IMG/VR virus record: IMGVR_UViG_2718217867_000004
Coordinates: 1 to 40,589 of that record
Origin: a virus
Lineage: Duplodnaviria; Heunggongvirae; Uroviricota; Caudoviricetes
DNA length: 40,589 nt
Strand: one strand, 5' to 3'
The first letter of the stretch is position 1. Every line of letters begins with the position of its first letter. Made by a program: the position numbers and the translations under genes. Below are positions 3,271 to 39,481 of this stretch, piece after piece. The notes beneath the pieces are model-generated. The model saw only the letters and a program-made list of their open reading frames with translations, made no database searches and was not told the origin of the DNA.

Positions 3271-4691
3271 GTGTTTCTCGCTGTGAAGGAAAGCGGCATG
3301 AACGCCGGATGGACGGGAGAGACCGCCTGTACCAGTTCGTCCGCACGCGAGGCGTCCTGATACAGCCGGTTTGCCAGCGCCAGCGACGGCTGCGGTGAGC
3401 GGCTGGTCACCTTCATCACGTCCTGTTGTGACAGATAATTCGTCTGCCAGTGGGTGACAAACTGCGTGTACTGCGCATTCAGCGCGTCATAACTGTCGTC
3501 ATCCGTACGGTCAGCCAGTAACAGCAGGACGGTTTCCGTCACCGTGCGGGCCTTCCGCATCACCAACACCGCGTCGTCGTGACCACGGGGGGAATACTGC
3601 ATCAGCCGCCACAGCATCGCTCCGGCCCCCAGTGTGCGGATAAGGGCCTGCACCGCCGCAGAGATGGCATTTGCCGCCTCCCCTTCGTAATACGTCCCGT
3701 CTTCCGCCGACGCAATCTCAGCCATGACGCGGATTTTCTCCGTGTCGCTGCCCGTGGCCTCCGCCAGAGTGATAATGACCGCCTGTATCGCGGACACGGC
3801 ACCGGACACGGATGTGATATCCTCCAGCACCGCTGTCGCCGACTCCGCCGCCGACCGGTCCTGCACGGAGCAGGCCTGAATGGTTTCCAGGATACTGTCA
3901 TCATCCGCATCCGTGGTGGCAAGCCACGTTGCAAGCGACGAGGCCGTGCTGCCCGACGGCGTATCACTGCCCCGACAGTAACGCCCGTAACTGTCAGGCG
4001 AATACAGGGATGACACCGTGCTGGTCATGCTGGTCACCGACGTCACCGCCCGCGAAAATATCGTCTTCCACGCGCTCACCGTGCTCTTTATCGTTTTTAC
4101 CGCGCCGGTGACACTGTTCATCTCACCGGTAATCGCCGCCAGCGTCACGGTGGCCGTTGTGGTCAGCGTCTGATACCACGTCTCCGATGACGTGGAGGTT
4201 GTCCCCGTCACCAGTGAAAACGCTTTTTCCCCTGACTCAATGACGGTCAGCGTGAACGAAAACACACGCCCGGACTCCACGCCCTCTTCAATACGCAGAC
4301 CTCCGTCCGGGACATACACCGTCATCTCACCCAGCGTCGGATGGACCAGCAGACCTCCGCCGGATGTTTCACAGGCCGCCACCAGGGCATCCCGCTGACT
4401 GAACACATCCCCCGCGCTGTACACCAGACTGTCCTGTATCAGGAACCCGCGCAGTGTGAACTTCCGGGCGCTGCGCCCCAGGTCTTCCACCCAGACCGTA
4501 TCGCGGTACGGGTATTCATGCACCGCCACCCGGCGACCATATACCCCCTCTCCGGCAATCACGCCAAACGGCACGCCACAAAATGACGCCTGGTGAATAT
4601 GCGACTGCCACTCCCACCCGCCGGAGGAAGACAGCCCCAGGGCGGATGACACCGCGTCTGTGATAATGCCCATCTTCTGCTCCTCACACAT
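3267..4691 (-). CDS. DNA circulation protein-like tail protein (Mu gp43-like)
   Basis: 474 aa ORF directly downstream of the tape measure gene; Ser/Thr-rich central region; gene order matches Mu N. Confidence 0.65.
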   Translation of the reverse strand: MCEEQKMGIITDAVSSALGLSSSGGWEWQSHIHQASFCGVPFGVIAGEGVYGRRVAVHEYPYRDTVWVEDLGRSARKFTLRGFLIQDSLVYSAGDVFSQRDALVAACETSGGGLLVHPTLGEMTVYVPDGGLRIEEGVESGRVFSFTLTVIESGEKAFSLVTGTTSTSSETWYQTLTTTATVTLAAITGEMNSVTGAVKTIKSTVSAWKTIFSRAVTSVTSMTSTVSSLYSPDSYGRYCRGSDTPSGSTASSLATWLATTDADDDSILETIQACSVQDRSAAESATAVLEDITSVSGAVSAIQAVIITLAEATGSDTEKIRVMAEIASAEDGTYYEGEAANAISAAVQALIRTLGAGAMLWRLMQYSPRGHDDAVLVMRKARTVTETVLLLLADRTDDDSYDALNAQYTQFVTHWQTNYLSQQDVMKVTSRSPQPSLALANRLYQDASRADELVQAVSPVHPAFMPLSFTARNT

Positions 4692-6642
4692 CCATCGCCG
4701 TGACCACCGCGCCCCCCTTCACCGTCCGTCGGGTTGTCTGCCCCGTGGCGGTGTTGGTGACGTTAATGTCCAGCCGGATTTTGTTTTCGCTGAAACCGCG
4801 ACTGATTTCATCCCGCACGTCAGTCCCTGAACTGCCGGACTGCGGCATGATGATGCTGCCGCCGGATACCTGTGACATGTGCCTGAACACCTTCAGCGCG
4901 TAGGTCTGTGTCTCCTGCGGCATCCCCTTCTGTCCGCGAAGCCAGGCGCTCATATTGCCTTCGCCCCAGTTGTACGCCTGAAAGGCGCGCTGCATGTCAC
5001 CACCATACTGCGCCATCAGCCCCGCCAGTTTTCTGGCGGCTGCCTCCGAGGCCCGGTAAGGGTTGAATACATCCATACCGGAAAGACCATACTCCCGGGC
5101 CGTCGGGTCAATGAACTGAAACATCCCCTTTGCCGTGCCGTAACGGGTGAGCGGCCCGACAGCATCCGCCCGCCCGGACGACTCCGTCATGGCCAGACCG
5201 TACAGCGTGTTTTCCGGCAGGTTGTACTGCTTCTCCAGTGCCGCAAAATGCGCCCGCAGTTCAGGGGTGATATCACGACCACCGGCACCGTTTTTTTGTG
5301 GTGACGTGATCTGTGACAGGGCCGGAGACACCATAACTTTCGACAGATCGTCATTCAGCATCGTGGTAAGCGCATTCAGTCTGTCGGACCGCTGACCGGA
5401 CAGACGCGTGTGCATCTCCAGGAGATCTGATGTCGCGATATTGTTATCGAGATTGTATCTTTGCCGGGACGTCAGTGATTTCAGTTGCTCCGGATGGGCA
5501 TACAGATAACCGCGCAGCTCTGACAGACGGTCCCCCGTTTTCTGCTGACTGCTGCGCTGACCGGTCAGGACATCGGTCGCCCAGTCCACGGAGGCGGTGA
5601 CAGCATCACTGCCCAGTACCTTCGCCTTCATCCTGCCGGTGAAACCATCCCACGCGGCTGACAGACGGTTCAGGTTGCTGTTCGCCTGAACCAGCTTCGC
5701 ATTCAGACTGTCCGGCATCGACAGCCCCAGACGATCGGACTCCGCCAGCGCCGCATTCAGGTTTTTCGTTCCCCGCAGCAGCGCCAGTTGTGCATCCGAC
5801 AGCCCCAGCGCGTCTGCCACCACCTTCTGCGACGAACTGTTCAGTCGCCCGAAGGCATCAATCAGGTTCTGCGTGCTCTTTTCCAGGTTCACCGTGTGGT
5901 CGCTATTCTCCGCCAGCTTCACACCAAACTGGTTAAGAATGCCCGTGACCTCCGGTGAACGGGTGTTCAGCGCATCGTTCAGTGTCGTGAACAGTGCACC
6001 GGTCTCCGCCTGTGCCTGATCTGCCGACAGGCTCATCAGACGGAACACCCCGGCAAAGCGGCTGAACGCACTCACGCGCATTCCGGCGTTCCTTGCGTTC
6101 ACATCCAGGCTGTATGCCGCTTTCGAGGCATCATAAAGATTACTGACGACCGCCTTCACCGCCATGCCACCGCCAGCGACCACAAGCCCCGCAAGACCTC
6201 CGCGCCCCAGCGCACTGAACAACTCTGATGACAGTGCCCCGACATTGCGCAGCGGCGGCACAATATCCCCGAAATGCTGTGACGTGTCCTTCCCCAGCCG
6301 GGACAGCCGTTCAAAATATCCGGACATCCTGTCCGCATTCTCCTGACTCTCCCTTCCCAGCGCCCTGTTACCCGCCCTGTCTGTGGCCAGCAGCGCGTTC
6401 ATCAGTAGCGTAACCGAATCGTGGATCTGCGTTATCTTCCCGCCCAGCGCATCCGCCGCACCGGATGCCCCGTTCAGGGACGTGTCATTTACTTCACCCA
6501 GCTCCTCAGACAGACCTGACACGCTGGCCGCCGCCTGCTCTGCGTTACCTGCCAGCAGTCCTGCAGCCTCTGAGGCTCTCAGTAAAAGCGCATCCGCGTT
6601 ACCCTTTGCATTCAGCTCAAAAACAAAAGCATTACCCGCCAT
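4684..6642 (-). CDS. Tail tape measure protein with C-terminal lytic transglycosylase (SLT) domain
   Basis: About 650 aa, Ala/Leu-rich alpha-helical N-terminal two-thirds; C-terminal motif LAMTESSGRADAVGP...GMFQF...AYNWG matches the SLT catalytic signature. Start placed at the ATG with a GGAG SD (the track uses an upstream GTG at 6648). Confidence 0.85.
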   Translation of the reverse strand: MAGNAFVFELNAKGNADALLLRASEAAGLLAGNAEQAAASVSGLSEELGEVNDTSLNGASGAADALGGKITQIHDSVTLLMNALLATDRAGNRALGRESQENADRMSGYFERLSRLGKDTSQHFGDIVPPLRNVGALSSELFSALGRGGLAGLVVAGGGMAVKAVVSNLYDASKAAYSLDVNARNAGMRVSAFSRFAGVFRLMSLSADQAQAETGALFTTLNDALNTRSPEVTGILNQFGVKLAENSDHTVNLEKSTQNLIDAFGRLNSSSQKVVADALGLSDAQLALLRGTKNLNAALAESDRLGLSMPDSLNAKLVQANSNLNRLSAAWDGFTGRMKAKVLGSDAVTASVDWATDVLTGQRSSQQKTGDRLSELRGYLYAHPEQLKSLTSRQRYNLDNNIATSDLLEMHTRLSGQRSDRLNALTTMLNDDLSKVMVSPALSQITSPQKNGAGGRDITPELRAHFAALEKQYNLPENTLYGLAMTESSGRADAVGPLTRYGTAKGMFQFIDPTAREYGLSGMDVFNPYRASEAAARKLAGLMAQYGGDMQRAFQAYNWGEGNMSAWLRGQKGMPQETQTYALKVFRHMSQVSGGSIIMPQSGSSGTDVRDEISRGFSENKIRLDINVTNTATGQTTRRTVKGGAVVTAMDV

Positions 6643-6777
6643 CGCCACTCCTCAGCCTGTTGATCCGCTCTGCCTGTGACAACCACCAGAGAATTTCCCC
6701 TGACGTCAGCCCCCACGCCTCGCGCGGGGACCAGTGAAAGAACCACGTCAGTTCAGCCGCCCTCGCCTGCCACTGGC

Positions 6778-7463: not shown

Positions 7464-8966
7464 TTAATCGCTGCGGCTGTTCAGCCTGAACTGGTTCAGC
7501 ACCGCAAAGATGCGTAACTGGTTCATCAGGCGGCCCGGCCACACCACGTTCACGCGGTTCGGGTTGTCACTGTCACGCTCAACCACCAGTTGCTCCGCAA
7601 ACGCATCCGCATTCTGCACGTAGCCGTTGCTCGCCAGCGTCCGGAACCGGGCGATCAGCTCAGCACGAATAATCGCAGGTGTGGCTATCGCAGCCCCTGC
7701 CGGAATATTCGCGTCGTCATCTGCCAGCTTCATCCGTCCAAACTTCGAGGTCACCTGTGTGCGCATGTCGCGGCATACATACATCAGCGTGTACATCGTC
7801 TCGATCTGCAGGTAGCTGTCGTCTGTCGCACCGTATCGGTTGGTCTGGTACGTGGTGATGGTATTCTCAAGCGTCACCGTATCGTCGGCCGACACCGTGA
7901 AGGTTGAGATACCGCTGTAGAGAAGCGTGTTCCGCTCCGTCAGGGTGAAACGGCTTGCCAGCGGCGGGGCCAGCACACCGGATACCGGCAGCGTCTGGGT
8001 GGGTCTCGCCGGATCGTTGCGGACCGACTGCGCCAGCGCCCCCACCATCGCGGCGGCATAGTCATATGAGGTGTTCGGACCGTCATACACTCCCCAGAGT
8101 GTCATGTGCTGGTCGTTGCGGCGCTCTCCCTTGTCTGCCAGCTCGCCATAGCTGCCGTTTACCGCCGTGAAGGCATGGCCGTAAATTTGTTTGTCCCACG
8201 CCCAGCGACCTTCGTCATCCGACAGAAAATCCTTCATGTCGTTGAGCGATGTGGTGTCGGAATACGCCAGGACAATGAAATCAAACGTGCGGTCGCCCAG
8301 AGAGGCGAGCGCATCCGCAAGGTCCGGCGCACCCTCCCCGCCACTCATCGCCGTGATGGTCAGCGTCAGGCCGTCCGGGGTGGACTCGCCGCCGGATGAC
8401 CCGAGATAGTTCAGCCGGATATCAATGGTGTTTCCCGTCTCACCGGCATTTCTGGCCGTAAGCTCAACGGTCGTGCCATCACGGGGCACGGAGGCCGTCA
8501 CCGGCAGCCCGGAGGTGGCGTTGATTCTGTCTGCCAGCAGACTGGCAATCTCTGCCCGCGTGTACGCTGGCTTCACCGTCAGGCGCACGCGGGTGCCTGC
8601 GATGTACAGGTAAATAACGCCGGATGCCGTCGGCACACTGTCAACAGATATACTGCCTGTGGCCGTCGTCATGCTGCTGTCATCATCTGCCAGCGGCAGC
8701 AGCCAGGTCTCTCCGTAGCTGTCATTTTTAAGGTAGGCCATCAGCATGGTATGCAGCATGGAGCCTTCCCCGCACAGCCCGGCAGCCATGGAGGCCGATG
8801 AACAGCGGTATGCCGTCCCTGCCGTGGCCGTTCCCGCAGCCGTCATCTGACCAATCAGCAGGGTGCGCTGCGTCTCCGTGGCGCTGTTCGCCATTGAGTT
8901 GTCCACTTCAACATAGAACAGTGGCACACGGAGATTTGACGGGATATTGCTGAACGATACCGTCAT
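7464..8966 (-). CDS. Tail sheath protein
   Basis: 500 aa ORF with a sequence typical of contractile tail sheath proteins; followed by tube and chaperone genes. Confidence 0.9.
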   Translation of the reverse strand: MTVSFSNIPSNLRVPLFYVEVDNSMANSATETQRTLLIGQMTAAGTATAGTAYRCSSASMAAGLCGEGSMLHTMLMAYLKNDSYGETWLLPLADDDSSMTTATGSISVDSVPTASGVIYLYIAGTRVRLTVKPAYTRAEIASLLADRINATSGLPVTASVPRDGTTVELTARNAGETGNTIDIRLNYLGSSGGESTPDGLTLTITAMSGGEGAPDLADALASLGDRTFDFIVLAYSDTTSLNDMKDFLSDDEGRWAWDKQIYGHAFTAVNGSYGELADKGERRNDQHMTLWGVYDGPNTSYDYAAAMVGALAQSVRNDPARPTQTLPVSGVLAPPLASRFTLTERNTLLYSGISTFTVSADDTVTLENTITTYQTNRYGATDDSYLQIETMYTLMYVCRDMRTQVTSKFGRMKLADDDANIPAGAAIATPAIIRAELIARFRTLASNGYVQNADAFAEQLVVERDSDNPNRVNVVWPGRLMNQLRIFAVLNQFRLNSRSD

Positions 8967-9776: not shown

Positions 9777-10108
9777 TTCACCCTGTTCAGTTCAAGTCGC
9801 GTGCCGCCGTGGCTGTCCGGTTGCACATCCCGCACGATATACAGCTCCCCCGTGCGCACGATGAGGAAAATATCGCCCTGCTTCGGCTTCACGCGACACG
9901 CCGCATCCCGCACGCCCAGCACGGGCAGCGTGGAGTTTGATTCCGTGCCCCCGTCCTCGCCGACAAGCTGCTGCGTGTACGCCCGGTCAAAAATCCCGGT
10001 CAGCCGGTACGCCTCACCGCCACGCGGGCGGTGTTCGCATTCCTCACCAAACACCCCGAACAACGGGGACAACAGATTTTTGTCCCAGTCAACCGGTCCG
10101 GCCATCAC
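9773..10108 (-). CDS. Head-tail connector / head completion protein, hypothetical
   Basis: 111 aa ORF, start overlaps the preceding gene; function assigned from position between capsid and tail genes. Confidence 0.45.
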   Translation of the reverse strand: MMAGPVDWDKNLLSPLFGVFGEECEHRPRGGEAYRLTGIFDRAYTQQLVGEDGGTESNSTLPVLGVRDAACRVKPKQGDIFLIVRTGELYIVRDVQPDSHGGTRLELNRVK

Positions 10109-10274
10109 CCTTCATCTCCGCCAGTGGAACAATCACCCCCAGACGCAGAAGACGCTGCGCCTCGCTTTCGCTCAGGGTGATCACATTACCCTGCGCCACC
10201 CGTTGTCCGTTGTGCTGCACACAACCGCGCAGCACAACATAGTCAACCGGCGCGCCCTTTTTGCCGGACGCCAT
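10089..10274 (-). CDS. Small head-associated protein, hypothetical
   Basis: Start placed at the internal ATG (MASGKKG...) just after the capsid gene stop; 61 aa. Confidence 0.35.
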   Translation of the reverse strand: MASGKKGAPVDYVVLRGCVQHNGQRVAQGNVITLSESEAQRLLRLGVIVPLAEMKGDGRTG

Positions 10275-10275
10275 C

Positions 10276-11331
10276 TCACACCACCGACGCGCACAGGCAC
10301 GCATTGACACGGGACGGGATGACAATCGGTGCCGACTGCATCATCAGGAAACGCTGTGCCGGATCCTGCTGATCCCACATTTTCGGGGCATAGGCCATCT
10401 GGCCGTAATTAAACGCCGGATCCATGATACAGCCGAACGCGCGGGTCCCCATCAGGGCCGCCCCGGTCAGAATGACGTTGCCGTCATCCAGCATCGGTTT
10501 TTCGGTTCCGTCATCCGGATCGATGAACCAGTCGTTATACAGCCAGAGGTTGAAGTTCCCCCACCTGCCCTTGTACACCGCACCGGTGTTGATCTGCGTC
10601 CCCGGGTTCACCACGTTGCTGGTCGGGTTCAGGGCGGGCATGTTGATGGCGTTCTCACGAATGAAACTGTCGTTCATGAACGCTGTCCAGGCTGACGGCG
10701 TGAAAATCACCTCGGTCGGGTACGCACCGGATTTTTTCAGCATCAGCGTCGCCCACGCCTCAAGGCAGGAGGTCGGGATCGTGCTGCTTTCCTCAGAAGG
10801 CCAGACATCATCCCCGCTCAGTGTCACCGTCAGGTCGCTGTCACGACGAAAATCCACTTCCGTGGTCGGGTAGCCCTCACCGGCGATCGTCACCTTCGCG
10901 TACTGGAGCGCCTGTGCCGCCATCCATTCAAGACGACGGTTCAGCATGTTGATCTGGTCGGCCATCTCGTACTGGAGGTTCAGCATTGCACGCTCTGCTG
11001 GCGTGTACTCACGCCCGCCCAGGCGTTCGCCGATCATACGGCGCACCGGACGAAGCAAATCGGGAACGCGCTTATCCTTGATGTAGGCCGGTCTGAAGGT
11101 GTTGGTCTGGTACGGCAGGGCCTCAACCATTGGTCCTTCCACCAGAGGGGAGCAGAACGGTGACATACGGCGTGCGCCCACTTCCACATCAATGGCCACA
11201 TACTCCGTATCGCTCAGCACGATATTCGGGAAGAAACTGTCCAGCAGCCAGTTCTGAGCCACAAACAGGTTCGGCACCACCTGCGCCAGAAACGCGGTGT
11301 CGTACAGCAGATTAAAGTCTTTTTCGCTCAT
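10276..11331 (-). CDS. Major capsid protein, lambda gpE family
   Basis: 351 aa; C-terminal GTRAFGCIMD...YAPKMW...DPAQRFLMMQSAPIV parallels the lambda E C-terminus (TYGCIQD...YPKNW...DPAREFTMIQSAPLM). Confidence 0.9.
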   Translation of the reverse strand: MSEKDFNLLYDTAFLAQVVPNLFVAQNWLLDSFFPNIVLSDTEYVAIDVEVGARRMSPFCSPLVEGPMVEALPYQTNTFRPAYIKDKRVPDLLRPVRRMIGERLGGREYTPAERAMLNLQYEMADQINMLNRRLEWMAAQALQYAKVTIAGEGYPTTEVDFRRDSDLTVTLSGDDVWPSEESSTIPTSCLEAWATLMLKKSGAYPTEVIFTPSAWTAFMNDSFIRENAINMPALNPTSNVVNPGTQINTGAVYKGRWGNFNLWLYNDWFIDPDDGTEKPMLDDGNVILTGAALMGTRAFGCIMDPAFNYGQMAYAPKMWDQQDPAQRFLMMQSAPIVIPSRVNACLCASVV

Positions 11332-11386: not shown

Positions 11387-11788
11387 TCACGGTACCGTGA
11401 CCGGATTGCGCAGAAAGATTTTCTCTTTCTCCAGCGCCACGCTCAGATCATCAATGTCCCAGCTTTCATCAAAAATCACCCGGTTTGCGTTGAACTCACC
11501 CATCAGGTAGACACCGGCCAGCACATCACCGGACGAGGCATCCGCCATGTCCGCCAGAATCGCCACCGGCGTTTCGCTGCCGTCCGTCACGCCTGCCCCC
11601 TGCTTGCAGAGGGTGTACGCCCCACTTTCCGTCATGCGCCCCAGCACCGTACCTCGCTGATACACCTCGCCACCAGTGATGGTCACAGTTTTTGTGACCA
11701 CCTGAAGCGGTCCGCACAGCAGCTGGTCCGGCTGGTATGCACCGGACCAGTAACCCGGTACCGACGGGTTGTTTCCGTATGTGCTCAT
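11387..11788 (-). CDS. Head decoration protein (lambda gpD-like)
   Basis: 133 aa ORF immediately upstream of the major capsid gene, in the gpD position; size matches. Confidence 0.7.
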   Translation of the reverse strand: MSTYGNNPSVPGYWSGAYQPDQLLCGPLQVVTKTVTITGGEVYQRGTVLGRMTESGAYTLCKQGAGVTDGSETPVAILADMADASSGDVLAGVYLMGEFNANRVIFDESWDIDDLSVALEKEKIFLRNPVTVP

Positions 11789-12366
11789 TGCGCTTTACCT
11801 CCCGTCGCCTCGTTGTACAGTTTCATGGCGTGCTGTGCCATCGCGTGCGCCTCCGTCGGTGCAGGGCGGACATCACGTCCGGTTCCCGGCTGTGGTACAT
11901 GCTGCATACGGGCAGTCAGTCCGCCTTTCTGGCCTGCGCCCCCTGCCACCGCCGCTTTCATCACGGCTCTGGCCTGTTTCACACTCATGCGGGTGTTGAA
12001 GGCCAGCTCTGCGGCAAGGGCCGGATTTTTCGCTGCATACGGCGTGGCGAAGATGGCTGCGCAGCGATGACGTTCGCTGGCGCGGGCCTTTTCTTCGTCA
12101 TCGTCGTCTTCTGCGTTTTCATCGTCGTCGTTATCGTCATCATCCGCACGGGAGCGCGCCTTACGGCTTTCGCGGCGGTCATCGTCGTCATCCGCCTGCC
12201 CGTCGTCGTCGTTATCGTCGTCATCCGCACGGGAGCGCGCCTTACGGCTTTCGCGACGGTCCTCGTCATCCTCCGCATTCTCCCCGTCGCGTTTGTCCTC
12301 CGGATCGTCATCCATTCGCGAACGACCGCCCATGCCTACCAGGTGCATGAAAGAAAATTTACCCAT
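11785..12366 (-). CDS. Acidic repeat-containing protein, probable scaffold (Nu3 position)
   Basis: 193 aa; N-terminal half is extremely Asp/Glu-rich with the unit DRRESRKARSRADDDDNDDD duplicated; lies between prohead protease and decoration gene, where lambda has Nu3. Confidence 0.55.
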   Translation of the reverse strand: MGKFSFMHLVGMGGRSRMDDDPEDKRDGENAEDDEDRRESRKARSRADDDDNDDDGQADDDDDRRESRKARSRADDDDNDDDENAEDDDDEEKARASERHRCAAIFATPYAAKNPALAAELAFNTRMSVKQARAVMKAAVAGGAGQKGGLTARMQHVPQPGTGRDVRPAPTEAHAMAQHAMKLYNEATGGKAQ

Positions 12367-13219
12367 TGTTTGCTGTCTCCTTTAACAGAAAAGAAAAGGC
12401 CTCATCCGGCGACATCACGTCGTCGGCAAGCCCTGCCTGCACCCCTTCGTCAGCCCGCAACGTCCGGGCCTCAAGTGCACGCACCGCATCCGCGCTGATG
12501 CCACGGTTGCGGGCAACGGTTTCGATAAAAAGCGTGCCTGCAGCGTCAGTGTCCGCCTGAAGTGCCGCCTGTGCCGCCTCACTCAGCGGACGCAGCGGAC
12601 TGGTCTCCGCCTTCCGGCTGCCGCAGGTGATGATGGTCACGTTCAGCCCCTCATCCTTCATCTGGCGCGACATGTCACAGTGCACGTAGATGACACCGAC
12701 GGATCCCACGCCGCCCGTGCGGGGGACCAGGATCCGGTCTGCGGCACTGGCAAGGGCATAGGCCGCCGAGTACGCCGACTCCGAGAGAATGGCGTGCACC
12801 GGTTTCTGCCCGCGACAGGCAAAAATCGTGTCCACCAGATCAAAACACCCGGCCACTTCTCCGCCGGGTGAATCGATATCAAGACAGATGCCCTTCACAT
12901 CAGGGTCGTTAAGCGCCGTCAGAAAATTTCGCCGGATGCCGTCATACCCCGTCATGCCGGAGTAAGGCCGTAGCGTCCCCAGTTTCTGTACCAGGGTGCC
13001 GTGCACGGGAATGATGGCGATCCCCTCCAGAATGTCGTACCCGCTTTCACGGGCGGGACGGCAGAAATCGTCTTCATCATCGTCATACCAGGCCCCCGTT
13101 TTTATCCGGGTGATCCCGAGTCGTTCTGCCAGTGCCGTAACAATGATTTCCGCTTTTCGCGGATGAATGGCCAGCGGCGTGTTCAGCAGGCGCTGGCTTA
13201 ACAGTGCAAGTTGATTCAT
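12359..13219 (-). CDS. Prohead protease, S49 (SppA/ClpP-like) family (lambda gpC-like)
   Basis: 286 aa; IDSPGGEV motif and overall sequence typical of S49 peptidases; directly downstream of the portal gene. Confidence 0.9.
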   Translation of the reverse strand: MNQLALLSQRLLNTPLAIHPRKAEIIVTALAERLGITRIKTGAWYDDDEDDFCRPARESGYDILEGIAIIPVHGTLVQKLGTLRPYSGMTGYDGIRRNFLTALNDPDVKGICLDIDSPGGEVAGCFDLVDTIFACRGQKPVHAILSESAYSAAYALASAADRILVPRTGGVGSVGVIYVHCDMSRQMKDEGLNVTIITCGSRKAETSPLRPLSEAAQAALQADTDAAGTLFIETVARNRGISADAVRALEARTLRADEGVQAGLADDVMSPDEAFSFLLKETANNG

Positions 13220-14856
13220 GAAACATCAGGCTCCTTCGGCTCTGCCGGGTCACTGCCCGTCGGTGTGGAGGCAAACTGCTCTGCCTGAAACCAGGAAGGC
13301 GGTGTCAGGCCTCTTTCCTTAAAGGCCCGCTCTTCTCGCGCCCGCTGATCGAGAATGTCCTCGAAATCTTCCCCCACGTTCTCAGCCACTTCGATTTCCA
13401 GCGTGGACATGCCGGCCTCCATCGCCAGAATCGCCCCTTTTTTCTCCGCGACCGGATCCACCCAGCCACGCCCCGGTCCCATCCAGTGGGCACGGGTGTA
13501 AGCGGCCCGCGCCGCCAGAAAATCCGGTGCGTCTGCAGGCAGCGGCAAATCCTCTTCTTCGTGCAGCTCTTCCAGAAACGCCGTCAGCACCGGCTGGGCA
13601 AAGCCAACCGCAAACTCATCACGACGGCGGGTCAGTGTTTTCCACGCCTCAAGGAGTGCCGCGCGGGCAGAGCTGTAGTTAACGTCCGACCAGTCCTGTG
13701 TCACCTGCTGGGTGGACAGACCCAGTGCAGCGGCAATATTCCTGAGCACCGTGCCCTCGAACTCCTTAAAGTTACTGACCGGGCGGGCGGCGCTCACGGC
13801 TTTTGGCTCTTCGCCGGGGAACGTAATGGGAATACGCACGCCCGACATCGAAATCCGGTTAGTATCGTGATACTTCATGCGCGCATCCTGGTAGCCATTA
13901 ATCACCTCCGCGTCACTCATCAGATCTTCTGTCAGTTTCGGGTCATAGGGCGACGTGATGAAAAAACCGAACATGGCATTGATGATGGCGGCTTCCAGCT
14001 CCACCTGGTCGTACTTGATAAGCATTTTCAGACGCTGAACCACGGGATTGAGAATACCGACACCACGATGCTGGCCCGCACGGTCATGATCAAAGTCATG
14101 CACCACCACCGGCCTTCCCCACGACGTTTCACGCGGCACGCGTTCCCAGTGCATCGTGTCACTGCCGCTCCACCAGTCCCCCATGTGTGCGGACCGGATG
14201 TGATAGGCTACCGGCACCCCGTCCGCGTCAATTTCCACACCGCCACGAATATGCGGCATGTCAAACGCATCGTTCGGGTTACTCAGCCGGTCGGGGTCAA
14301 TCACCTGTACCACCGTACCGTAACGCCCGCGACCGGGGGCTATTCTGTCCGGTCGCCAGTGGATGACCGCCAGCGCATCGCCGTCGATCATCTTGTGGCG
14401 GAATGCCAGCCGGAAAAGCTGCGACAGGGTCTGTCTGCGTTCAAGGTCGCAGTAACACCCGGCATCACTGGCCCAGTTGCGCCAGTGTGCCTCCACACAG
14501 CGCCCGTACTCATCCGCCCAGTCTGCATCAAATGCCCGGTTGCCGCTCATCTCTGCCAGCATCCGGTAGTCAGGCTTCATCCTCGGGCGAAAAACCACCC
14601 CCATGGCATTGTCCAGCAGACGGGTGATACTGCCATTCGCCCAGCCGTCATTGCGGACAAGGTCGCGCATTCTGGCAACCATACGGTTACGCCAGATATT
14701 CACTTCATTGTCCGGTGACCACAGTACCGGGTTCCAGCCCGCCACCGAACCGTGCGAGAAACCGGCAGAGTCGTAGGGGATCCGCCCGCTGTCATTCAGT
14801 GCGCGTTTTTTTTCCGTCTGTTGCGGAAAAGGTCTGCCATTTTTATCGACTATCAT
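13216..14856 (-). CDS. Portal protein (lambda gpB family)
   Basis: 546 aa ORF between gpW-like and protease genes, overlapping both; size and position of a lambda-type portal. Confidence 0.9.
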   Translation of the reverse strand: MIVDKNGRPFPQQTEKKRALNDSGRIPYDSAGFSHGSVAGWNPVLWSPDNEVNIWRNRMVARMRDLVRNDGWANGSITRLLDNAMGVVFRPRMKPDYRMLAEMSGNRAFDADWADEYGRCVEAHWRNWASDAGCYCDLERRQTLSQLFRLAFRHKMIDGDALAVIHWRPDRIAPGRGRYGTVVQVIDPDRLSNPNDAFDMPHIRGGVEIDADGVPVAYHIRSAHMGDWWSGSDTMHWERVPRETSWGRPVVVHDFDHDRAGQHRGVGILNPVVQRLKMLIKYDQVELEAAIINAMFGFFITSPYDPKLTEDLMSDAEVINGYQDARMKYHDTNRISMSGVRIPITFPGEEPKAVSAARPVSNFKEFEGTVLRNIAAALGLSTQQVTQDWSDVNYSSARAALLEAWKTLTRRRDEFAVGFAQPVLTAFLEELHEEEDLPLPADAPDFLAARAAYTRAHWMGPGRGWVDPVAEKKGAILAMEAGMSTLEIEVAENVGEDFEDILDQRAREERAFKERGLTPPSWFQAEQFASTPTGSDPAEPKEPDVS

Positions 14857-14864
14857 CGCTCACC

Positions 14865-15116
14865 TCAGTAACGCACGCTCAGAGACCTTCTCGTCCTTAT
14901 CCCCAGCGCCCGCTGGAGCGTCGCGATCAGCGCCAGCAAATCAGCACTGCTGGCCTGTGAATAAGTCACGGTGCGCGTGCCGTCTCCCTGTGCATAGGAG
15001 AAACTCACGCCACGCCGCCCTGAAAGCAGCTCAATATAGGCCGCCTGAGCTTCATTCAGTGCCGTCTTCAGTTGTTCTTTTGACATTCCGGCAAACACGC
15101 CGGGGGTATTCATCAT
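14865..15116 (-). CDS. Head-tail joining protein gpW-like
   Basis: 83 aa ORF between terminase large subunit and portal, the conserved gpW position. Confidence 0.7.
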   Translation of the reverse strand: MMNTPGVFAGMSKEQLKTALNEAQAAYIELLSGRRGVSFSYAQGDGTRTVTYSQASSADLLALIATLQRALGIRTRRSLSVRY

Positions 15117-17092
15117 CGTCTCACTCCTGCAAGCCTCATATGCAGCGGTATTTTCTTACGGGGTATCTCCGGTGCTTTTGCGCCCGGCATACTTAAACTG
15201 ATTTTTTCTTCCGGCTGCGCGGGAGGCGGCTCCAGGAATGACAGATCCTGCGCCGCCCGTTCAGCCAGACGGTTCAGTTTCAGACCGTGATGCAGCAGCC
15301 CCTTCAGGGCCGCGTAACCGTACACCATGCAGTCCAGCGCCTCATTCGCCCGTCCGGCAGACAGCTCCCAGACACGGTACACCTGCCCGCCGTTCTCCTT
15401 ACGCACCAGACGCTCAGAGAGCAGCTGACTGAAATAATGCAAATCCAGAAACGACGGAAAATGGATACAGCCTGCGGCAGGCGCGCCTGCCGGATCCGGC
15501 TCAATATGGAGCCGGTGCCTGATGTCGTCCTTCGCGGAGTTCACCCCCAGAATGACGGGGCGAAAGGATTTCCGGTTGCGGGAAGAAACACTGCGCGTCG
15601 GCCAGACGGGATTACGTTTGCCGCCAGTGGCGGACTCACCTTTTGTCGCCCAGATACGACGCCCGATACGCGCCTTCGAGAACTCATACACTTTGTTGGT
15701 GTGATGACCGCCCGAGTCATGGCAGACCGCCGAGAGCGTCAGCCCGAAACCGTCAGCCCGCCGCCAGACCTGCTTCAGATACGCATCAAGGCGCTCCCAC
15801 GGCTCTTCTGTTTCAAGGTCACCAAAAATCACGTCATGCGCAATCACCCAGCATTCTTCGTTCATGCCCCAGCCGAGAACGGTGATTTCGAAGCGGTCAT
15901 CCTGCGTATCCACCCCGGCGGTCAGCAGGAGCACGCCATACGGCACCTCCGCTCCCCAGACCTCGACACGGGCAATCAGCCGCTGTTCACTCATCGCAAA
16001 CTCGCCTGCATCCTCGTAAGGCTCGCCCAGCGTGGTATTGATGAATGTCTGGCGCATCAGCGGATCGTCCTTCACCCTCAGCCATTCGGCGACCAGATTC
16101 GGCCAGGAGGCATTTGAGTTCGGGCTGTAGCCCGTCCAGATATGAAAACCGGCATGCCCCCTGAATGGTGCACCGGCACGCCATTCGCCTTTTGCCAGCA
16201 TCCCGGGCAGTTCACTGTGCACAATCACACAGCCGTGGTGACGGCACAGATAGTAAGCGGTCTCCGGCAGCCCGTTACCTTCGCTGTCCTTTTCCCACTT
16301 GATGCCGTAAGGGGTGCTTTTGCTGCCCCACTCCAGCACCTGATATTCACCGCAGTGAGGACAGGGCACGAAGTAGCGGCGCTGATCGCTTTCCAGCCAG
16401 GCTTTTTCAATACGGCTCACGCCTTTCACGGTTGGCGTTGAGCCGAGAACAATCTTGCGGTTCCAGAAGGTTTCGGAACGTTTTGTTCCCAGCGCAATCT
16501 GATCCCCTTCGGACCCTGCGCCCCCTGCCGGATACCCGTCCACCTCATCAAAAAGGATGATGCGGCATGTGATACGGCGAAAACCGCCGGGGGAGTTGGC
16601 CCCGACCAGCGTGAGGTTTGCGCCGTTGGAAAAGGTTTTGCGAAGAATGGTCTGGTTGCTGTTTTTTGCCTTCGGGTCGCCGCTGATGGCTGCCAGCACC
16701 GGCGTGTCGCGCAACATCGGGGCAATTTCGATTTTACTGTAGTCTTCGGCATCCTCCACCCTCGGCTGAACCACCAGGATGGAGGACGGATCATGTGCCA
16801 GGTAATAGCCCACCACATGGTCAAGAATTTTCGTGTATCCCACACGGGCTGATTTCATCACAGACACATACGTGACTGACGGGTCGGTGATGGCATCCAT
16901 TATGCCGTCCTGATAGGGATAGGAGCGGAATTTCCCCGTCTGGGCACTGGTCTCACGGGACAGTACAGCGAAGGTGTTGGCCCACTGGCTTAAGGATAAT
17001 GGCGGCGGAGGCGCAAGATAACGCGGACACGAAAGCAGCGCCTCCTCAAACTGTATCTCCGTGGGTTTCGCGCCTGTCAAATGCAAGTTCAT
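15113..17092 (-). CDS. Terminase large subunit (lambda gpA family)
   Basis: 659 aa; overall sequence typical of gpA-type terminases; overlaps the small subunit gene. Confidence 0.95.
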   Translation of the reverse strand: MNLHLTGAKPTEIQFEEALLSCPRYLAPPPPLSLSQWANTFAVLSRETSAQTGKFRSYPYQDGIMDAITDPSVTYVSVMKSARVGYTKILDHVVGYYLAHDPSSILVVQPRVEDAEDYSKIEIAPMLRDTPVLAAISGDPKAKNSNQTILRKTFSNGANLTLVGANSPGGFRRITCRIILFDEVDGYPAGGAGSEGDQIALGTKRSETFWNRKIVLGSTPTVKGVSRIEKAWLESDQRRYFVPCPHCGEYQVLEWGSKSTPYGIKWEKDSEGNGLPETAYYLCRHHGCVIVHSELPGMLAKGEWRAGAPFRGHAGFHIWTGYSPNSNASWPNLVAEWLRVKDDPLMRQTFINTTLGEPYEDAGEFAMSEQRLIARVEVWGAEVPYGVLLLTAGVDTQDDRFEITVLGWGMNEECWVIAHDVIFGDLETEEPWERLDAYLKQVWRRADGFGLTLSAVCHDSGGHHTNKVYEFSKARIGRRIWATKGESATGGKRNPVWPTRSVSSRNRKSFRPVILGVNSAKDDIRHRLHIEPDPAGAPAAGCIHFPSFLDLHYFSQLLSERLVRKENGGQVYRVWELSAGRANEALDCMVYGYAALKGLLHHGLKLNRLAERAAQDLSFLEPPPAQPEEKISLSMPGAKAPEIPRKKIPLHMRLAGVRR

Positions 17093-22352: not shown

Positions 22353-23399
22353 TTAACTATTGTTTCTTACTTCATCAACCGTTTGATTAAACCTATCCGT
22401 TTCCAGCTCTACACCAATAGCTCTACGTTCCAGATAGAGCGCAGCCTTTATAGTCGCCCCCGATCCCATAAAAAAGTCTGCAACCAGTTCCCCCGGACGA
22501 CTGCTGGCTGTAATTATCTGCCGCAACATATCTGCTGGCTTCTCACACGGATGTTTACCCGGATAATACTGCACAGGTTTGTGCGTCCAGACATCCGTAT
22601 AAGGAACGGCAGCTGATACGGAAAAATAACGCCGCAAAGATTTATACTCTTCCAGCAGGCTGACATATTGCCGGTTCAGTTCGCTGTATGTGCTGACCAG
22701 ATGGTGGTGTGGCTTTTCCAGTTCTCCGCGTTGATGTTTTTCTGCTGCAACACGCGCAAACAACGCCTGCAGCTTTCTGTAATCAGCTTCGTTCGGTAAC
22801 TGCCACTGGCTGGCACCAAACCAGTGCGAAGCCATGTTTTTCTTTCCGGTGGCTTCCGCTATCTGTTTCGGCGTTATCCCCAGTGATTCACGCGCATCAC
22901 GAAAGTAAGAAATCAGCGGAGCCATGACATGCTGTTTAAGCTCGCGCCCCTTTGCCACATAGCCATCATTTTTTGGCCGATATGGCCCCTGGTAATGTTC
23001 AGCAAACAGTATGTGCTCTGTTGCCGGGAAATATGCCCTCAGGCTTTCCTTCCTGCACCCGTTCCAGCGTCCGGACGGCTTCGCCCAGATGATATGGTTA
23101 AGCACGTTGAAATGTTCACGCAACATGATCTCGATATCAGATGCCAGACGATGCCCACAGAACAGATAAAGACTTCCGGCGGGCTTCAGTACCCGCCAGA
23201 ACTGCGCCAGACACTGGTCCAGCCACTTCAGGTAATCATCGTCACCCTTCCACTGGTTATCCCAGCCCTCGGGCTTCACTTTAAAGTATGGCGGGTCTGT
23301 GACTATCAAATCGACAGAGTTTTCCGGTAAGGTCTGGATAAATCCCAGGCAATCAGCGTTGATTAACTCACAACTGGATATTTTTACAGTGTTAACCAT
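22353..23399 (-). CDS. DNA methyltransferase (N6-adenine/N4-cytosine, beta class), orphan
   Basis: 348 aa; N-terminal DPPY motif (VTDPPYF) and C-terminal FxGxG motif (FFMGSGAT); no adjacent restriction endonuclease gene. Confidence 0.9.
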   Translation of the reverse strand: MVNTVKISSCELINADCLGFIQTLPENSVDLIVTDPPYFKVKPEGWDNQWKGDDDYLKWLDQCLAQFWRVLKPAGSLYLFCGHRLASDIEIMLREHFNVLNHIIWAKPSGRWNGCRKESLRAYFPATEHILFAEHYQGPYRPKNDGYVAKGRELKQHVMAPLISYFRDARESLGITPKQIAEATGKKNMASHWFGASQWQLPNEADYRKLQALFARVAAEKHQRGELEKPHHHLVSTYSELNRQYVSLLEEYKSLRRYFSVSAAVPYTDVWTHKPVQYYPGKHPCEKPADMLRQIITASSRPGELVADFFMGSGATIKAALYLERRAIGVELETDRFNQTVDEVRNNS

Positions 23400-25739: not shown

Positions 25740-26789
25740 TTACCCAAGCACGCCGGTTGCAAAGGCGTGATCAAGAAAACGAAAAATTAAATCAACCTGG
25801 GAACCATGCTTTTCTTCGAACGCCTGCGGATCTGCATGAAGTTCGTTGTGATGTTCCCGACACAGCGGCAACGTAAAAATATCGTGGGCTTTTGTCCCCA
25901 TCCCGCCCTGACCGTGACCAATCAGGTGATGGGGATCGTCTGCTGGCTTACCACAACACGTACACGGCTGTGTCTTCACCCAGCGCGTATATTTCTCATT
26001 TACCCAACGGCGACGTTTAGGCCGCCTCATGAAAGATTCCGGTGACTCCGGATCAACGGTGATGCTGACCACCGTCTTTTCCTGTGGTGGGTTTTGTTGC
26101 TGGTGGGCGTGAGATGGCTGCACAAGATTTTTTGTGCGCTGCTTCAGTACGCTGGTGGCTGTCTGCTCTCCCGGTATGATGTCGCTTTCGCGGTACACCG
26201 AGCGGATTTTTTCCGCACGCAATCCCAGAGAACGACGTAATACTGCCTCCGGAAGCGCGTCCGCCACTTGATTGCAGACCGCCCACCAAGATAATTCAGC
26301 TAGCGATAACTCTCGCTCCTGTGTGCCATTCATTGCGTGACGGATGACGTCAATCATCCATGCTGACAAGTTTTGGTGAGCTAGTAGCCCGAGTGATTCG
26401 GAGGTCTGGTCACGCAACTGGTTGTCGCAGTGCCAGCACAACACCATCGCGCCAGAGTCATAACGGTGAATGACGGTTTCACTGTGGTGATAATCGCCGT
26501 GTGGCCACTGGCAGGATTTAACATGGCGCAGTAACCAGTGAGACAATGCGCCAGCGCCACCAGCAGCACGAATCACTCGTTCGTCGCTGAAAAATGACAG
26601 TAATGATTTATCCTCCGCCAGCGGCTGGCGAACGGCAGGGACGACTCCGGACGGCAGACCGAGCATGCTTTTCGGTTCCGGCTCCACCAGCACTCGAGGA
26701 TTGTGAAATACCTGCATGGATTCACGACCTGGTTTAAGGACCACCAGCCCGAGTTCCGGTACCAGAACAGGTCGAAGTAATACCCGCAC
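25740..26789 (-). CDS. DUF968-like protein with C-terminal HNH-type zinc-binding motif
   Basis: 349 aa; C-terminal CTCCGKPADDPHHLIGHG...CREHHNELH; nin-region position upstream of rusA; start codon uncertain (GTG in the track). Confidence 0.7.
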   Translation of the reverse strand: MRVLLRPVLVPELGLVVLKPGRESMQVFHNPRVLVEPEPKSMLGLPSGVVPAVRQPLAEDKSLLSFFSDERVIRAAGGAGALSHWLLRHVKSCQWPHGDYHHSETVIHRYDSGAMVLCWHCDNQLRDQTSESLGLLAHQNLSAWMIDVIRHAMNGTQERELSLAELSWWAVCNQVADALPEAVLRRSLGLRAEKIRSVYRESDIIPGEQTATSVLKQRTKNLVQPSHAHQQQNPPQEKTVVSITVDPESPESFMRRPKRRRWVNEKYTRWVKTQPCTCCGKPADDPHHLIGHGQGGMGTKAHDIFTLPLCREHHNELHADPQAFEEKHGSQVDLIFRFLDHAFATGVLG

Positions 26790-27249: not shown

Positions 27250-27582
27250 GTGACGACAAAAAAATTGAGTTCAGCACCAGCTGATGTGTTGAATGCTTTA
27301 CTCCATCGCCATCAGAATATGCAACATCTTGCAACACAGGAAAGCGTTGATAACTTACGTCGCGAGATTGATAGTCGATTTAATGCTTCACAAGAAAACG
27401 TTGATAATCTGCGTCGGGAAGTCGATAGTCGCTTTAACTCTTTGCAAAATCAGTTAATGTCGGTTGATAAGCGTCTGGATAAACTGGAAACCAAGTTTGA
27501 CCGACTCCAGTGGTTTATCGTTGCCGCTGCTCTGGCACTCATCTTTAAAGATTACATCCTCAGGTTTATGGGTGCTTTATAA
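27250..27582 (+). CDS. Coiled-coil protein with C-terminal transmembrane helix (membrane-anchored)
   Basis: 110 aa; internal repeat (SVDNLRREIDSRFNASQ / NVDNLRREVDSRFNSLQ), C-terminal hydrophobic helix; GTG start 10 nt after an AGGAGG SD, with an ATG four bases upstream in another frame; convergent with hok. Confidence 0.55.
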   Translation: MTTKKLSSAPADVLNALLHRHQNMQHLATQESVDNLRREIDSRFNASQENVDNLRREVDSRFNSLQNQLMSVDKRLDKLETKFDRLQWFIVAAALALIFKDYILRFMGAL

Positions 27583-33845: not shown

Positions 33846-34057
33846 GAATCATTCTTTCCTTCGTTCGAGGTGTTATCCTGCTTCTTGTAAAGTTCTGGAT
33901 TGTATTTCAATTCACCGTTAGTAATTTCATCCAGCTCCATTGCGCGAAGTTTGGGAATAACTGCTTTCCACCGCACAACAGCCACATGTGAAATTCCAAG
34001 AGCCTCAGCTACTAGTCGCTTTTTTTTGAAATAGCGCAGAACATCATCTTTGAACAT
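33842..34057 (-). CDS. Cro-like HTH regulator (YdaS/Cro family)
   Basis: 71 aa with HTH KKKRLVAEALGISHVAVVRWK; divergent from cI across an operator-bearing gap; ATGA overlap with the YdaT-like gene. Confidence 0.8.
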   Translation of the reverse strand: MFKDDVLRYFKKKRLVAEALGISHVAVVRWKAVIPKLRAMELDEITNGELKYNPELYKKQDNTSNEGKNDS

Positions 34058-34085
34058 AAAACTCTCCTGTTATTTCGAACAAGAG

Positions 34086-34150
34086 GGTAACAATAGTTAC
34101 ATAATGATGTCAACCATAGTAACATTACTTGGTAGTAACATTGGTTACAT
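34086..34150. promoter_or_regulatory. OR-like operator cluster between cro and cI
   Basis: Three sites with inverted GTAAC/GTTAC half-sites (GGTAACAATAGTTAC, GTAACATTACTTGG, GTAACATTGGTTAC) in the divergent promoter region. Confidence 0.6.
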
Positions 34151-34823
34151 GAAAAACACTATCAGCGAACGTATTCGGAATCGTCGAAAAGACGTTGGAC
34201 TAACTCAACAGCAGGTTGCGAAAGCAATCGGCATATCTCGCGTATCCGTAACAAAATGGGAAAATGGCTCTTCAAAACCTGACGGTGAGAATTTGCATCT
34301 GCTGTCAAAATTGCTTTCCAAATCTCCTGAATGGATTCTTTATGGAAAGGATGGTCACGATAAAACCGACGATCTGCGTCTGAATCAGCACCTTTACATT
34401 AGTGACAACATCGCCCGGTTGCCCGTTTTAACGTGGGAACAGGCTGGTTATTGGGATATGAGTTGCCCAGTAACCGAGATTCCTGGTATTAAGAATTGGG
34501 TTGATGTCATGACAAAAACCGCTGAAAACTCTTTTTTATTGCGCGTTGAGGGAGATGCGATGACGAACTCTAACGGCCTCCCAACCATCCCCGACGGATC
34601 TACCGTGCTGATCACTCCATGCTCAAGTAACATTAGAGAACTGGTGGGAAAAATAATCTTAATCCAATTGGAAGGAACGCCGAACGTAACACTAAAAAAA
34701 GTTGCGATTGACGGACCAAACATCTATCTGCTGTCACTGAATCCGCTTTACAAACCCATTGAACTGAATGGTGGTTACACTATTAAAGGTAAAGTTTCAC
34801 AAATACATCAATATTTAGACTGA
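34149..34823 (+). CDS. cI-like repressor (N-terminal HTH, C-terminal S24 LexA-like peptidase domain)
   Basis: HTH (LTQQQVAKAIGISRVSVTKWENG) and S24 autocleavage domain (VEGDAMT...KGK); start chosen at MKNTIS just after the operators; the track ORF begins at 34050. Confidence 0.85.
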   Translation: MKNTISERIRNRRKDVGLTQQQVAKAIGISRVSVTKWENGSSKPDGENLHLLSKLLSKSPEWILYGKDGHDKTDDLRLNQHLYISDNIARLPVLTWEQAGYWDMSCPVTEIPGIKNWVDVMTKTAENSFLLRVEGDAMTNSNGLPTIPDGSTVLITPCSSNIRELVGKIILIQLEGTPNVTLKKVAIDGPNIYLLSLNPLYKPIELNGGYTIKGKVSQIHQYLD

Positions 34824-39232: not shown

Positions 39233-39481
39233 ATGGCAAGACTTATTCTGCTCACTGAGTGGGCAAAAGAGGAATTCAGCGATCCGGTCCCTACTCCGGG
39301 CACGTTAAGTAAATACGCTAAAGCCGGAATGATATTTCCTCTCCCCAAAAAAGTTGGAAGACACTGGCGAGTGGATCCGCGAGCTCGCTTTGTCGGAATG
39401 GTAAACAAGCCGGAGGTGATCGCCACAGATCACCCTGCTTTAAAGAGGATACTGGAAGATGGCACGCCCGCGAAAATATAA
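39233..39481 (+). CDS. xis: Excisionase (Xis-like DNA-binding protein)
   Basis: 82 aa starting MARLILLTEWAKEEF; immediately upstream of and overlapping the integrase gene. Confidence 0.7.
   Translation: MARLILLTEWAKEEFSDPVPTPGTLSKYAKAGMIFPLPKKVGRHWRVDPRARFVGMVNKPEVIATDHPALKRILEDGTPAKI

Follow-up and report, generated by a model that had tools for sequence, protein, structure and literature searches.

A probable stand-alone Nu3-type scaffold gene with a tandem repeat of variable copy number in an Escherichia coli prophage

The DNA analysed here, called the window throughout, is a stretch of 40,589 nt (IMG/VR record IMGVR_UViG_2718217867_000004, positions 1 to 40,589) that corresponds to a temperate myovirus prophage of the phiNP/BZS1 type, in which a lambda-type head is combined with a contractile tail. 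The subject of this work is an open reading frame (ORF) of 193 amino acids (aa) that lies among the head genes and contains an 81-bp tandem duplication. In this Escherichia coli prophage, the ORF probably encodes the procapsid scaffold, a stand-alone counterpart of lambda gpNu3 with an acidic linker and an unstable, near-neutral repeat.

Head genes and the tandem repeat array

The coordinates of all features are collected in Table 1. The order of genes on the minus strand is large terminase (TerL), W-like adaptor, portal, S49 protease, the 193-aa ORF, decoration protein and capsid protein E, which parallels lambda A-W-B-C/Nu3-D-E. The initial annotation had placed the acidic protein at the scaffold position, and this was borne out: the gene is located between the S49 prohead protease gene and the genes for the HDPD decoration and E-family capsid proteins, and the C-terminal domain of its product appears homologous to the C-terminal part of lambda Nu3/gpC. 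The window protease was aligned with lambda gpC by BLASTP (36% identity, E = 2e-56) over gpC residues 5-293 only, the Nu3 part being absent. It also matches phrog_53, the gpC family profile (E = 5.7e-107), over positions 5-293 of 583. In lambda, residues 239-439 of gpC are also made separately as Nu3. Because the window protease aligns with gpC 5-293 only, the 193-aa ORF occupies the Nu3-specific slot of gpC.

The protease and scaffold genes overlap by 8 nt (12359-12366), and the scaffold is a separate ORF in a different frame with its own Shine-Dalgarno sequence. The overlap of stop and start codons (ATGGGTAA) and the AAGGAG inside the end of the protease gene point to translational coupling. 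Two readings that involve a gpC-like fusion were considered and rejected. For a protease-scaffold fusion made by frameshift or readthrough, no slippery site is evident, and the scaffold is in the +1 frame in the window and in phiNP and in frame after the stop codon in BZS1; since the frame relationship differs among the three, programmed recoding is unlikely. A split pseudogene of such a fusion was discarded, since throughout the family the protein stands alone and has a conserved N-terminal motif of its own.

The repeat array was delimited with Tandem Repeats Finder (TRF; period 81, 2.2 copies, 87% matches, score 276). The 81-bp tandem duplication first described at 12120-12262 lies inside this array and had been described correctly. 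The two full units are identical at 72 of 81 positions, and the longest exact run common to both is 35 nt. Mismatches fall mostly in the first third of the unit; the core (~12122-12195 against its partner 81 bp on, at least 93% identical) has just two, both synonymous. The units are arranged head to tail and their length is a multiple of 3 (81 bp in the window, 75 bp in the L006 allele described below), as in an in-frame coding variable number tandem repeat. The 193-aa ORF contains DRRESRKARSRADDDDNDDD twice, encoded by the two full units. Translated on the minus strand, the array reads ENAEDDED-RRESRKARSRADDDDNDDD, then GQADDDDD-RRESRKARSRADDDDNDDD, then a partial third unit, ENAEDDDD-EEKARASER.

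The best internal repeat of the protein has a score of 20; in 100 shuffles that preserved composition, the mean was 3.9 and the highest score 6. Seven complete E. coli genomes carry the two-copy gene (576-582 bp, 95-99.5% identity), and hundreds of contigs encode an identical or nearly identical protein. Since the shuffle scores are low and the same two-copy gene is present in complete genomes, the repeat is neither a product of chance nor an artefact of assembly: the 81-bp duplication in the window is real. Two further ORFs over the repeat (plus strand, 11737-12498, 253 aa; minus strand, 11985-12311, 108 aa) were rejected as shadow ORFs of a GC-rich, repeat-rich gene, because it is the 193-aa frame that is shared by hundreds of homologues and keeps its synteny.

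Table 1. Features of the window, and the homologous genes of two isolated phages (positions in L002 and L003 where indicated)
Feature	Position	Strand	Basis or remark
Putative stand-alone Nu3-type head scaffolding protein gene, 193 aa	11785-12366	minus	ORF listing; PHROG 6382 member; database label 'hypothetical protein'
Scaffold ATG	12364-12366	minus	overlaps protease stop codon (ATGGGTAA)
Shine-Dalgarno AAGGAG	12377-12382	minus	10 nt upstream of scaffold ATG, within 3' end of protease gene
N-terminal motif KFSFMHLVG (family consensus F-A-H-L-L-G)	12334-12360	minus	family alignments
Acidic mixed-charge predicted disordered region, aa 18-92	12091-12315	minus	55% Asp + Glu, net charge -27, two basic RRESRKARSR blocks
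81-bp tandem repeat array	12097-12276	.	TRF and unit comparison
Unit A, second copy in the protein	12097-12177		part of 81-bp array
Unit B, first copy in the protein	12178-12258		part of 81-bp array
Partial repeat unit	12259-12276		end of 81-bp array
Predicted three-helix domain, aa 89-143, core ERHRCAAIF...AAELAFNTRMS	11938-12102	minus	AlphaFold2 pLDDT 91-96; probably homologous to lambda Nu3 aa ~110-165
C-terminal tail, net basic: L..RM helix (aa 150-155) and amphipathic helix (aa 172-187, ...MKLYNEA)	11788-11937	minus	AlphaFold2 pLDDT about 54-76
S49 (SppA/ClpP-clan) prohead protease, 286 aa	12359-13219	minus	Pfam Peptidase_S49, E = 6.8e-26
Head decoration protein (lambda D family)	11387-11788	minus	Pfam HDPD, E = 1.6e-17; phrog_49; directly downstream of scaffold gene
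Major capsid protein (lambda E family), presumed scaffold partner	10276-11331	minus	Pfam Phage_cap_E, E = 2.9e-58
Portal protein (lambda B family)	13216-14856	minus	Pfam Phage_portal_2, E = 2.3e-99
W-like adaptor	14865-15116	minus	
Large terminase (TerL)	15113-17092	minus	
Tape measure with SLT domain	4684-6648		
Sheath	7464-8966		
N6/N4 DNA methylase	22353-23399		
DUF968/HNH protein	25740-26789		
CI-like S24 repressor	34050-34823		
Lambda-type integrase	39459-40589		runs to window end
phiNP_023	4901-5503 (L002)		DAEDDDRE-like repeats
phiBZS1_p06	4888-5487 (L003)		two copies of KEKGKKAKSRRAEE

The structure of the 193-aa protein was predicted with AlphaFold2 from the family alignment. Residues 1-88 were given a predicted local distance difference test score (pLDDT) of mostly 45-61 and no secondary structure, which amounts to predicted disorder, and only residues 89-143 were modelled with confidence, as helices at 89-106, 115-124 and 129-143. 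In the C-terminal tail, L..RM aligns with LDRLM of Nu3, and LYN..G.K is kept in enterobacterial members. In the N-terminal motif, F6, H8 and L9 are invariant in the family alignment A2; K3 and F4 are invariant too among close relatives (alignment A1). Three parts can thus be told apart in the protein: the conserved F-x-H-L-x-G motif at the N-terminus, a segment of roughly 75 aa, predicted to be disordered, in which basic RRESRKARSR blocks alternate with poly-Asp, and a basic helical domain at the C-terminus.

The protein is a charge dipole, with a net charge of -22 in the N half and +8 in the C half (isoelectric point (pI) of the C half, 10.4). Its acidity had initially been thought extreme for a scaffold, a view that stands only for local density. 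The pI of the whole protein (4.79) is ordinary (4.53 for lambda Nu3, 4.31 for T7 gp9, 4.66 for phi29 gp7). The maximum fraction of Asp and Glu over 75 residues, 0.55, exceeds that of these three textbook scaffolds (0.19-0.37) and is normal for its own family (0.60 in the phiNP homologue, 0.57 in the BZS1 homologue). Matches of the acidic tracts to Pfam CDC45 and Nop14, an NCBIfam cobaltochelatase and nucleophosmin in PDB were sub-threshold and compositional, and were rejected.

Relationship to lambda Nu3 and to PHROG 6382

An alignment of 28 family members was compared with lambda Nu3 using hhalign, and aa 90-161 were aligned with Nu3 110-183 (E = 2.1e-5, probability 77%). An alignment of the C-terminal part only was matched to residues 354-421 of gpC (E = 7.7e-5). 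The reverse search gave a match of lambda Nu3 to phrog_6382 (E = 4.7e-5). Nu3 and the window protein also match the same two other profiles: phrog_17040 (E = 1.6e-12 and 4.4e-8, respectively) and phrog_53 at positions ~345-465. In addition, aa 86-145 of the window protein match a small PHROG labelled "head maturation protease", and the top three Foldseek matches among the BFVD viral models are prohead or S49 proteases. The C-terminal helical domain thus appears to be a distant homologue, reciprocally detected, of the C-terminal part of lambda Nu3/gpC. Taking this homology together with synteny, we conclude from sequence comparison that the window protein is in all likelihood a stand-alone Nu3-type scaffold. 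No other known function was found for it.

The window protein is matched over its full length by phrog_6382 (unknown function; E = 5.9e-34, aa 4-191 on profile positions 6-200 of 201), and 481 homologues were retrieved in the homologue search. With a profile of the C-terminal domain, 2,507 representatives of 50%-identity clusters were recovered at E<=0.001, 715 of them at E<=1e-10. In the PHROG, NCBI and phage records examined, the family is annotated "hypothetical". Its architecture was described from the best 150 of the 2,507 representatives. All are 116-276 aa long with the domain at the C-terminus, and 126 of the 150 carry the F.H[LM] pattern of the F-A-H-L-L-G motif within their first 30 aa. 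Statistics on the region preceding the domain (N-region), on charge and on repeats were taken from the 128 of these 150 that have the core motif. The N-region is 33-186 aa long (median 110), with a median of 34% Asp + Glu and a median net charge of -16, against a median of +6 for the C-terminal part. Internal repeats beyond at least 98% of shuffles were found in 53 of the 128 (about 40%), with periods of 9-71 residues and unrelated units, which argues that the acidic linker evolves by recurrent tandem duplication. What the family conserves is the charge dipole and the N-terminal motif; the acidic tract varies in sequence and in length.

Searches of a phage collection by megablast and by tblastn (whole protein and C-terminal half) returned nothing, although two isolated phages, phiNP and BZS1, carry homologues; these empty results reflect low-complexity filtering and divergence rather than absence. 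The two homologues were located through the capsid protein (that of the window is 65.5% identical to that of phiNP) and synteny. In both phages, which are myoviruses, a lambda-like head is joined to a Mu-like tail. Their genes, phiNP_023 (Citrobacter phage phiNP, WOZ57184.1) and phiBZS1_p06 (Serratia phage vB_SspM_BZS1, QNO00900.1), are true PHROG 6382 members at the same position, and the products (199-200 aa) have the same three-part architecture as the window protein. The acidic sequence and the repeat unit differ from those of the window, which points to independent duplications. In the papers on the two phages no naming of either protein as a scaffold was found; they are annotated as hypothetical or of unknown function.

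A separate observation concerns the capsid gene. A 78-aa ORF with a DUF7210 domain (10089-10325, minus strand) overlaps its 3' end and precedes the gene for the head-tail attachment protein, and phiNP and BZS1 have 'hypothetical' genes at the equivalent position.

By mass spectrometry of BZS1 virions, 13 proteins were identified: p07 (decoration), p08 (capsid) and eleven tail proteins; p05 (protease) and p06 were not detected (PMC7556043). The absence of p06 is consistent with a transient scaffold that leaves the head. It also bears on a different idea, in which the protein would act as a DNA mimic or as an acidic internal component of the head, be packaged with the genome and then be either injected against host defences, in the manner of Ocr, ArdA or T4 internal proteins, or kept as a counter-ion peptide, the repeat tuning the length of the mimic. 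The extreme local acidity (55% Asp/Glu over 75 aa) would suit such a role; the weak matches to the acidic tracts of CDC45, Nop14 and nucleophosmin show a general acidic-tail likeness only. Besides the failure to detect the BZS1 homologue in virions, conservation is concentrated in the basic Nu3-like domain, the gene sits in the late head operon at the scaffold slot, and the acidic region is predicted to be disordered and is broken by basic blocks, unlike rigid DNA mimics. No Pfam match to anti-restriction families was obtained for the window protein. DNA mimics of the Ocr/ArdA type have a folded acidic surface, early or leading-region expression and a family signature, none of which was found for the window protein. 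We consider this idea highly improbable.

Copy number of the repeat

The initial annotation had proposed that copy number may vary between isolates. Comparison of near-identical E. coli proteins, taken as cluster members of the closest matches, showed that it does. One copy is present in P0004, P0135, P0137, P0138, P0139 and P0145 (165-166 aa), and a one-copy protein has the accession WP_074507775. Two copies, the common form, are present in the window, P0001, P0002, P0121 and P0136 (190-193 aa), P0136 being found on 606 contigs. Three copies are present in P0141 (WP_086214719, 215 aa). P0137 is 100% identical to the window protein outside a 27-aa gap, P0138 shows the same unit loss in a second allele background, and P0145 has a different deletion breakpoint. 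The DNA sequences agree with this: the one-copy allele in L007 is the window sequence less exactly 81 bp at the array, and the three-copy allele in L006 contains a 75-bp unit in 3.1 copies (94% identity).

All 7 complete genomes have two copies, and the one- and three-copy alleles come from draft, Logan or metagenome assemblies. This distribution is what would be expected if only the two-copy form were natural and the others reflected collapse or expansion of a short tandem repeat during assembly, and it counts against natural instability. Four observations make an assembly origin quite improbable. The longest exact run shared by the units (35 nt) is shorter than the final k-mers of common assemblers. 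The one-copy P0137 was found on 11 contigs from independent samples and different assemblers. At least two deletion breakpoints (P0137, P0145) exist, with one-copy forms in two allele backgrounds. Finally, collapse cannot yield a three-copy array.

The duplication is a product of slippage or unequal recombination between direct repeats, and it is unstable still, with one-, two- and three-copy alleles in circulation. Because two copies are present in all three close allele lineages, the one- and three-copy forms are most readily explained as later loss and gain of a unit through the same mechanisms. Copy number is most likely a tolerated, near-neutral variation and not a switch, since the linker ranges from 33 to 186 aa in the family and about 40% of the 128 representatives have unrelated repeats of their own. 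The repeat is an ordinary length polymorphism within a flexible linker. The scaffold gene, and hence the head module, is rare, being present in 7-8 of 5,426 complete E. coli genomes.

Two other repeats were noticed in the window. At 27335-27437, in ORF 27250-27582 (plus strand), a second in-frame tandem duplication has a 54-bp unit (1.9 copies, 79% identity) encoding two 18-aa units, (Q/S)QE(S/N)VDNLRRE(I/V)DSRFN; the 110-aa protein has a hydrophobic C-terminal tail, and its sole Pfam match is weak, sub-threshold and YwqH-like. At 38225-38311, in ORF 36698-39169 (plus strand), 21-bp repeats (about 3.7 copies) encode a Q/E/N-rich linker. In this 823-aa protein, aa 642-813 form an Rv2179c-like 3'-5' exoribonuclease domain and the N-terminal 640 aa have no Pfam match.

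Proposed function and comparison with known scaffolds

The protease gene C of lambda includes the Nu3 sequence as its C-terminal third. In the window, the protease stops after the S49 domain and the Nu3-like part would be produced separately by translational coupling. By analogy with Nu3, P22 gp8 and T7 gp9, the basic C-terminal domain would attach to the capsid protein on its inner side, perhaps also to the portal or the protease, and would drive assembly of the shell. The acidic disordered half would project into the cavity as a flexible, self-repelling spacer, each 81-bp unit adding one basic-plus-acidic module to this linker. It probably also aids the exit of the scaffold, or of its proteolytic fragments, after the S49 protease has acted and DNA enters.

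The lambda protease is tethered to scaffold sequence and the window protease is not; therefore, something else must load it. The conserved N-terminal motif possibly does so, or it recruits the portal. This raises the question of whether the protein is an accessory assembly factor rather than the bulk scaffold, its Nu3-like domain and F-A-H-L-L-G motif recruiting the untethered S49 protease, the portal or both, with scaffolding left to the capsid protein or to another gene. A protease without a Nu3-like tail needs a route into the procapsid, for which lambda uses the protease-Nu3 fusion, and the N-terminal motif is strongly conserved (126 of 150 representatives). Moreover, lambda Nu3 interacts with B, C, E and itself and is needed for portal incorporation (PMC3224144). 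However, lambda Nu3 is scaffold and recruiter at once, so the two roles are not exclusive. The interval from portal to capsid has no other candidate scaffold gene, and the capsid protein (351 aa), which matches the E profile over its full length, has no delta-domain-like extension at the N-terminus. An accessory role alone is thus rather unlikely.

Another arrangement would give the repeat a function. The alternation of RRESRKARSR blocks with poly-Asp could make the linker a blocky, self-attracting polyampholyte which, together with the basic C-terminal domain, would condense an electrostatic procapsid core, the number of modules setting its valency; the F-A-H-L-L-G motif would be a docking element for the S49 protease, comparable to the ClpX/ClpA loops, or else for the portal. 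IGF/LGF loops dock ClpX and ClpA on ClpP, and the likeness of the family motif to these loops is put forward as an idea only. If this arrangement held, the kinetics of assembly, the loading of the protease or the fidelity of the capsid would depend on whether an allele has one, two or three copies. It is distinctly unlikely.

The scaffold with a flexible, near-neutral linker remains our preferred interpretation, and several points weigh against it. BLASTP gave no alignment of the window protein with lambda Nu3. The hhalign probabilities (62-77%) were obtained with a single-sequence template, and the homology to Nu3 is distant. Neither Foldseek against PDB nor a PDB sequence search with the window protein returned a match at a meaningful E-value. 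The negative result for BZS1 p06 carries little weight, because virion mass spectrometry missed the portal too. Presence in procapsids is a prediction, for the window protein as for every family member, and so are the functions assigned to the acidic tract, to the N-terminal motif and to the basic blocks.

If the assignment is right, a Nu3-type head scaffold function can be given to a widespread "hypothetical" family (PHROG 6382, more than 2,500 representatives at 50% identity), and phiNP_023 and phiBZS1_p06 could be re-annotated as Nu3-type scaffolds. The nesting of the scaffold in the protease gene of lambda would have a split-gene counterpart, which poses the question of how an untethered protease enters the shell. 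The one-, two- and three-copy alleles, with the spread of linker lengths (33-186 aa), offer a natural series on the length and charge of a disordered segment in capsid assembly. The current understanding of scaffolds is not overturned, the object being of a known kind and its family merely unannotated.

Among known systems, the scaffolds of P22 and T7 resemble the window protein in charge logic. In P22 gp8, a positively charged C-terminal region binds the coat protein electrostatically (PMC9962691). P22 gp8 and T7 gp9 are largely flexible, as is predicted for the window protein, and the sequence of T7 gp9 is acidic in its N-terminal part and turns basic at the C-terminus. By PDB sequence and Foldseek searches, neither is detectably related to the window protein in sequence or fold, and the helix-turn-helix of P22 gp8 has no similar element in it; only the charge logic is alike. 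Acidic residues are less densely packed in these two proteins, whose acidic regions do not consist of tandem repeats. To our knowledge, neither P22 nor T7 has a maturation protease.

The closer counterpart is lambda gpNu3, from which the window protein differs in several respects. Nu3 starts at an internal in-frame site within gene C and shares the C-terminus of the protease, whereas the window scaffold is a separate gene. The N-terminus of Nu3 is part of the S49 domain, in place of which the window protein has the F-x-H-L-x-G motif and the hyper-acidic repeat tract. The maximum Asp/Glu fraction of Nu3 over 75 aa is 0.19, against 0.55 in the window protein. Intrinsic disorder has been attributed to Nu3 (Medina et al., 2011, as cited in PMC11565965). 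The two proteins have in common an overall acidic sequence (pI 4.5 for Nu3 and 4.8 for the window protein) that is largely disordered, by prediction in the window protein, and a C-terminal helical region of the form E..R...I......A...LA....M-V..A that includes the L..RM / LDRLM element. Their coding sequences also take up the same place in the series portal, S49 protease, scaffold, decoration D and capsid E.

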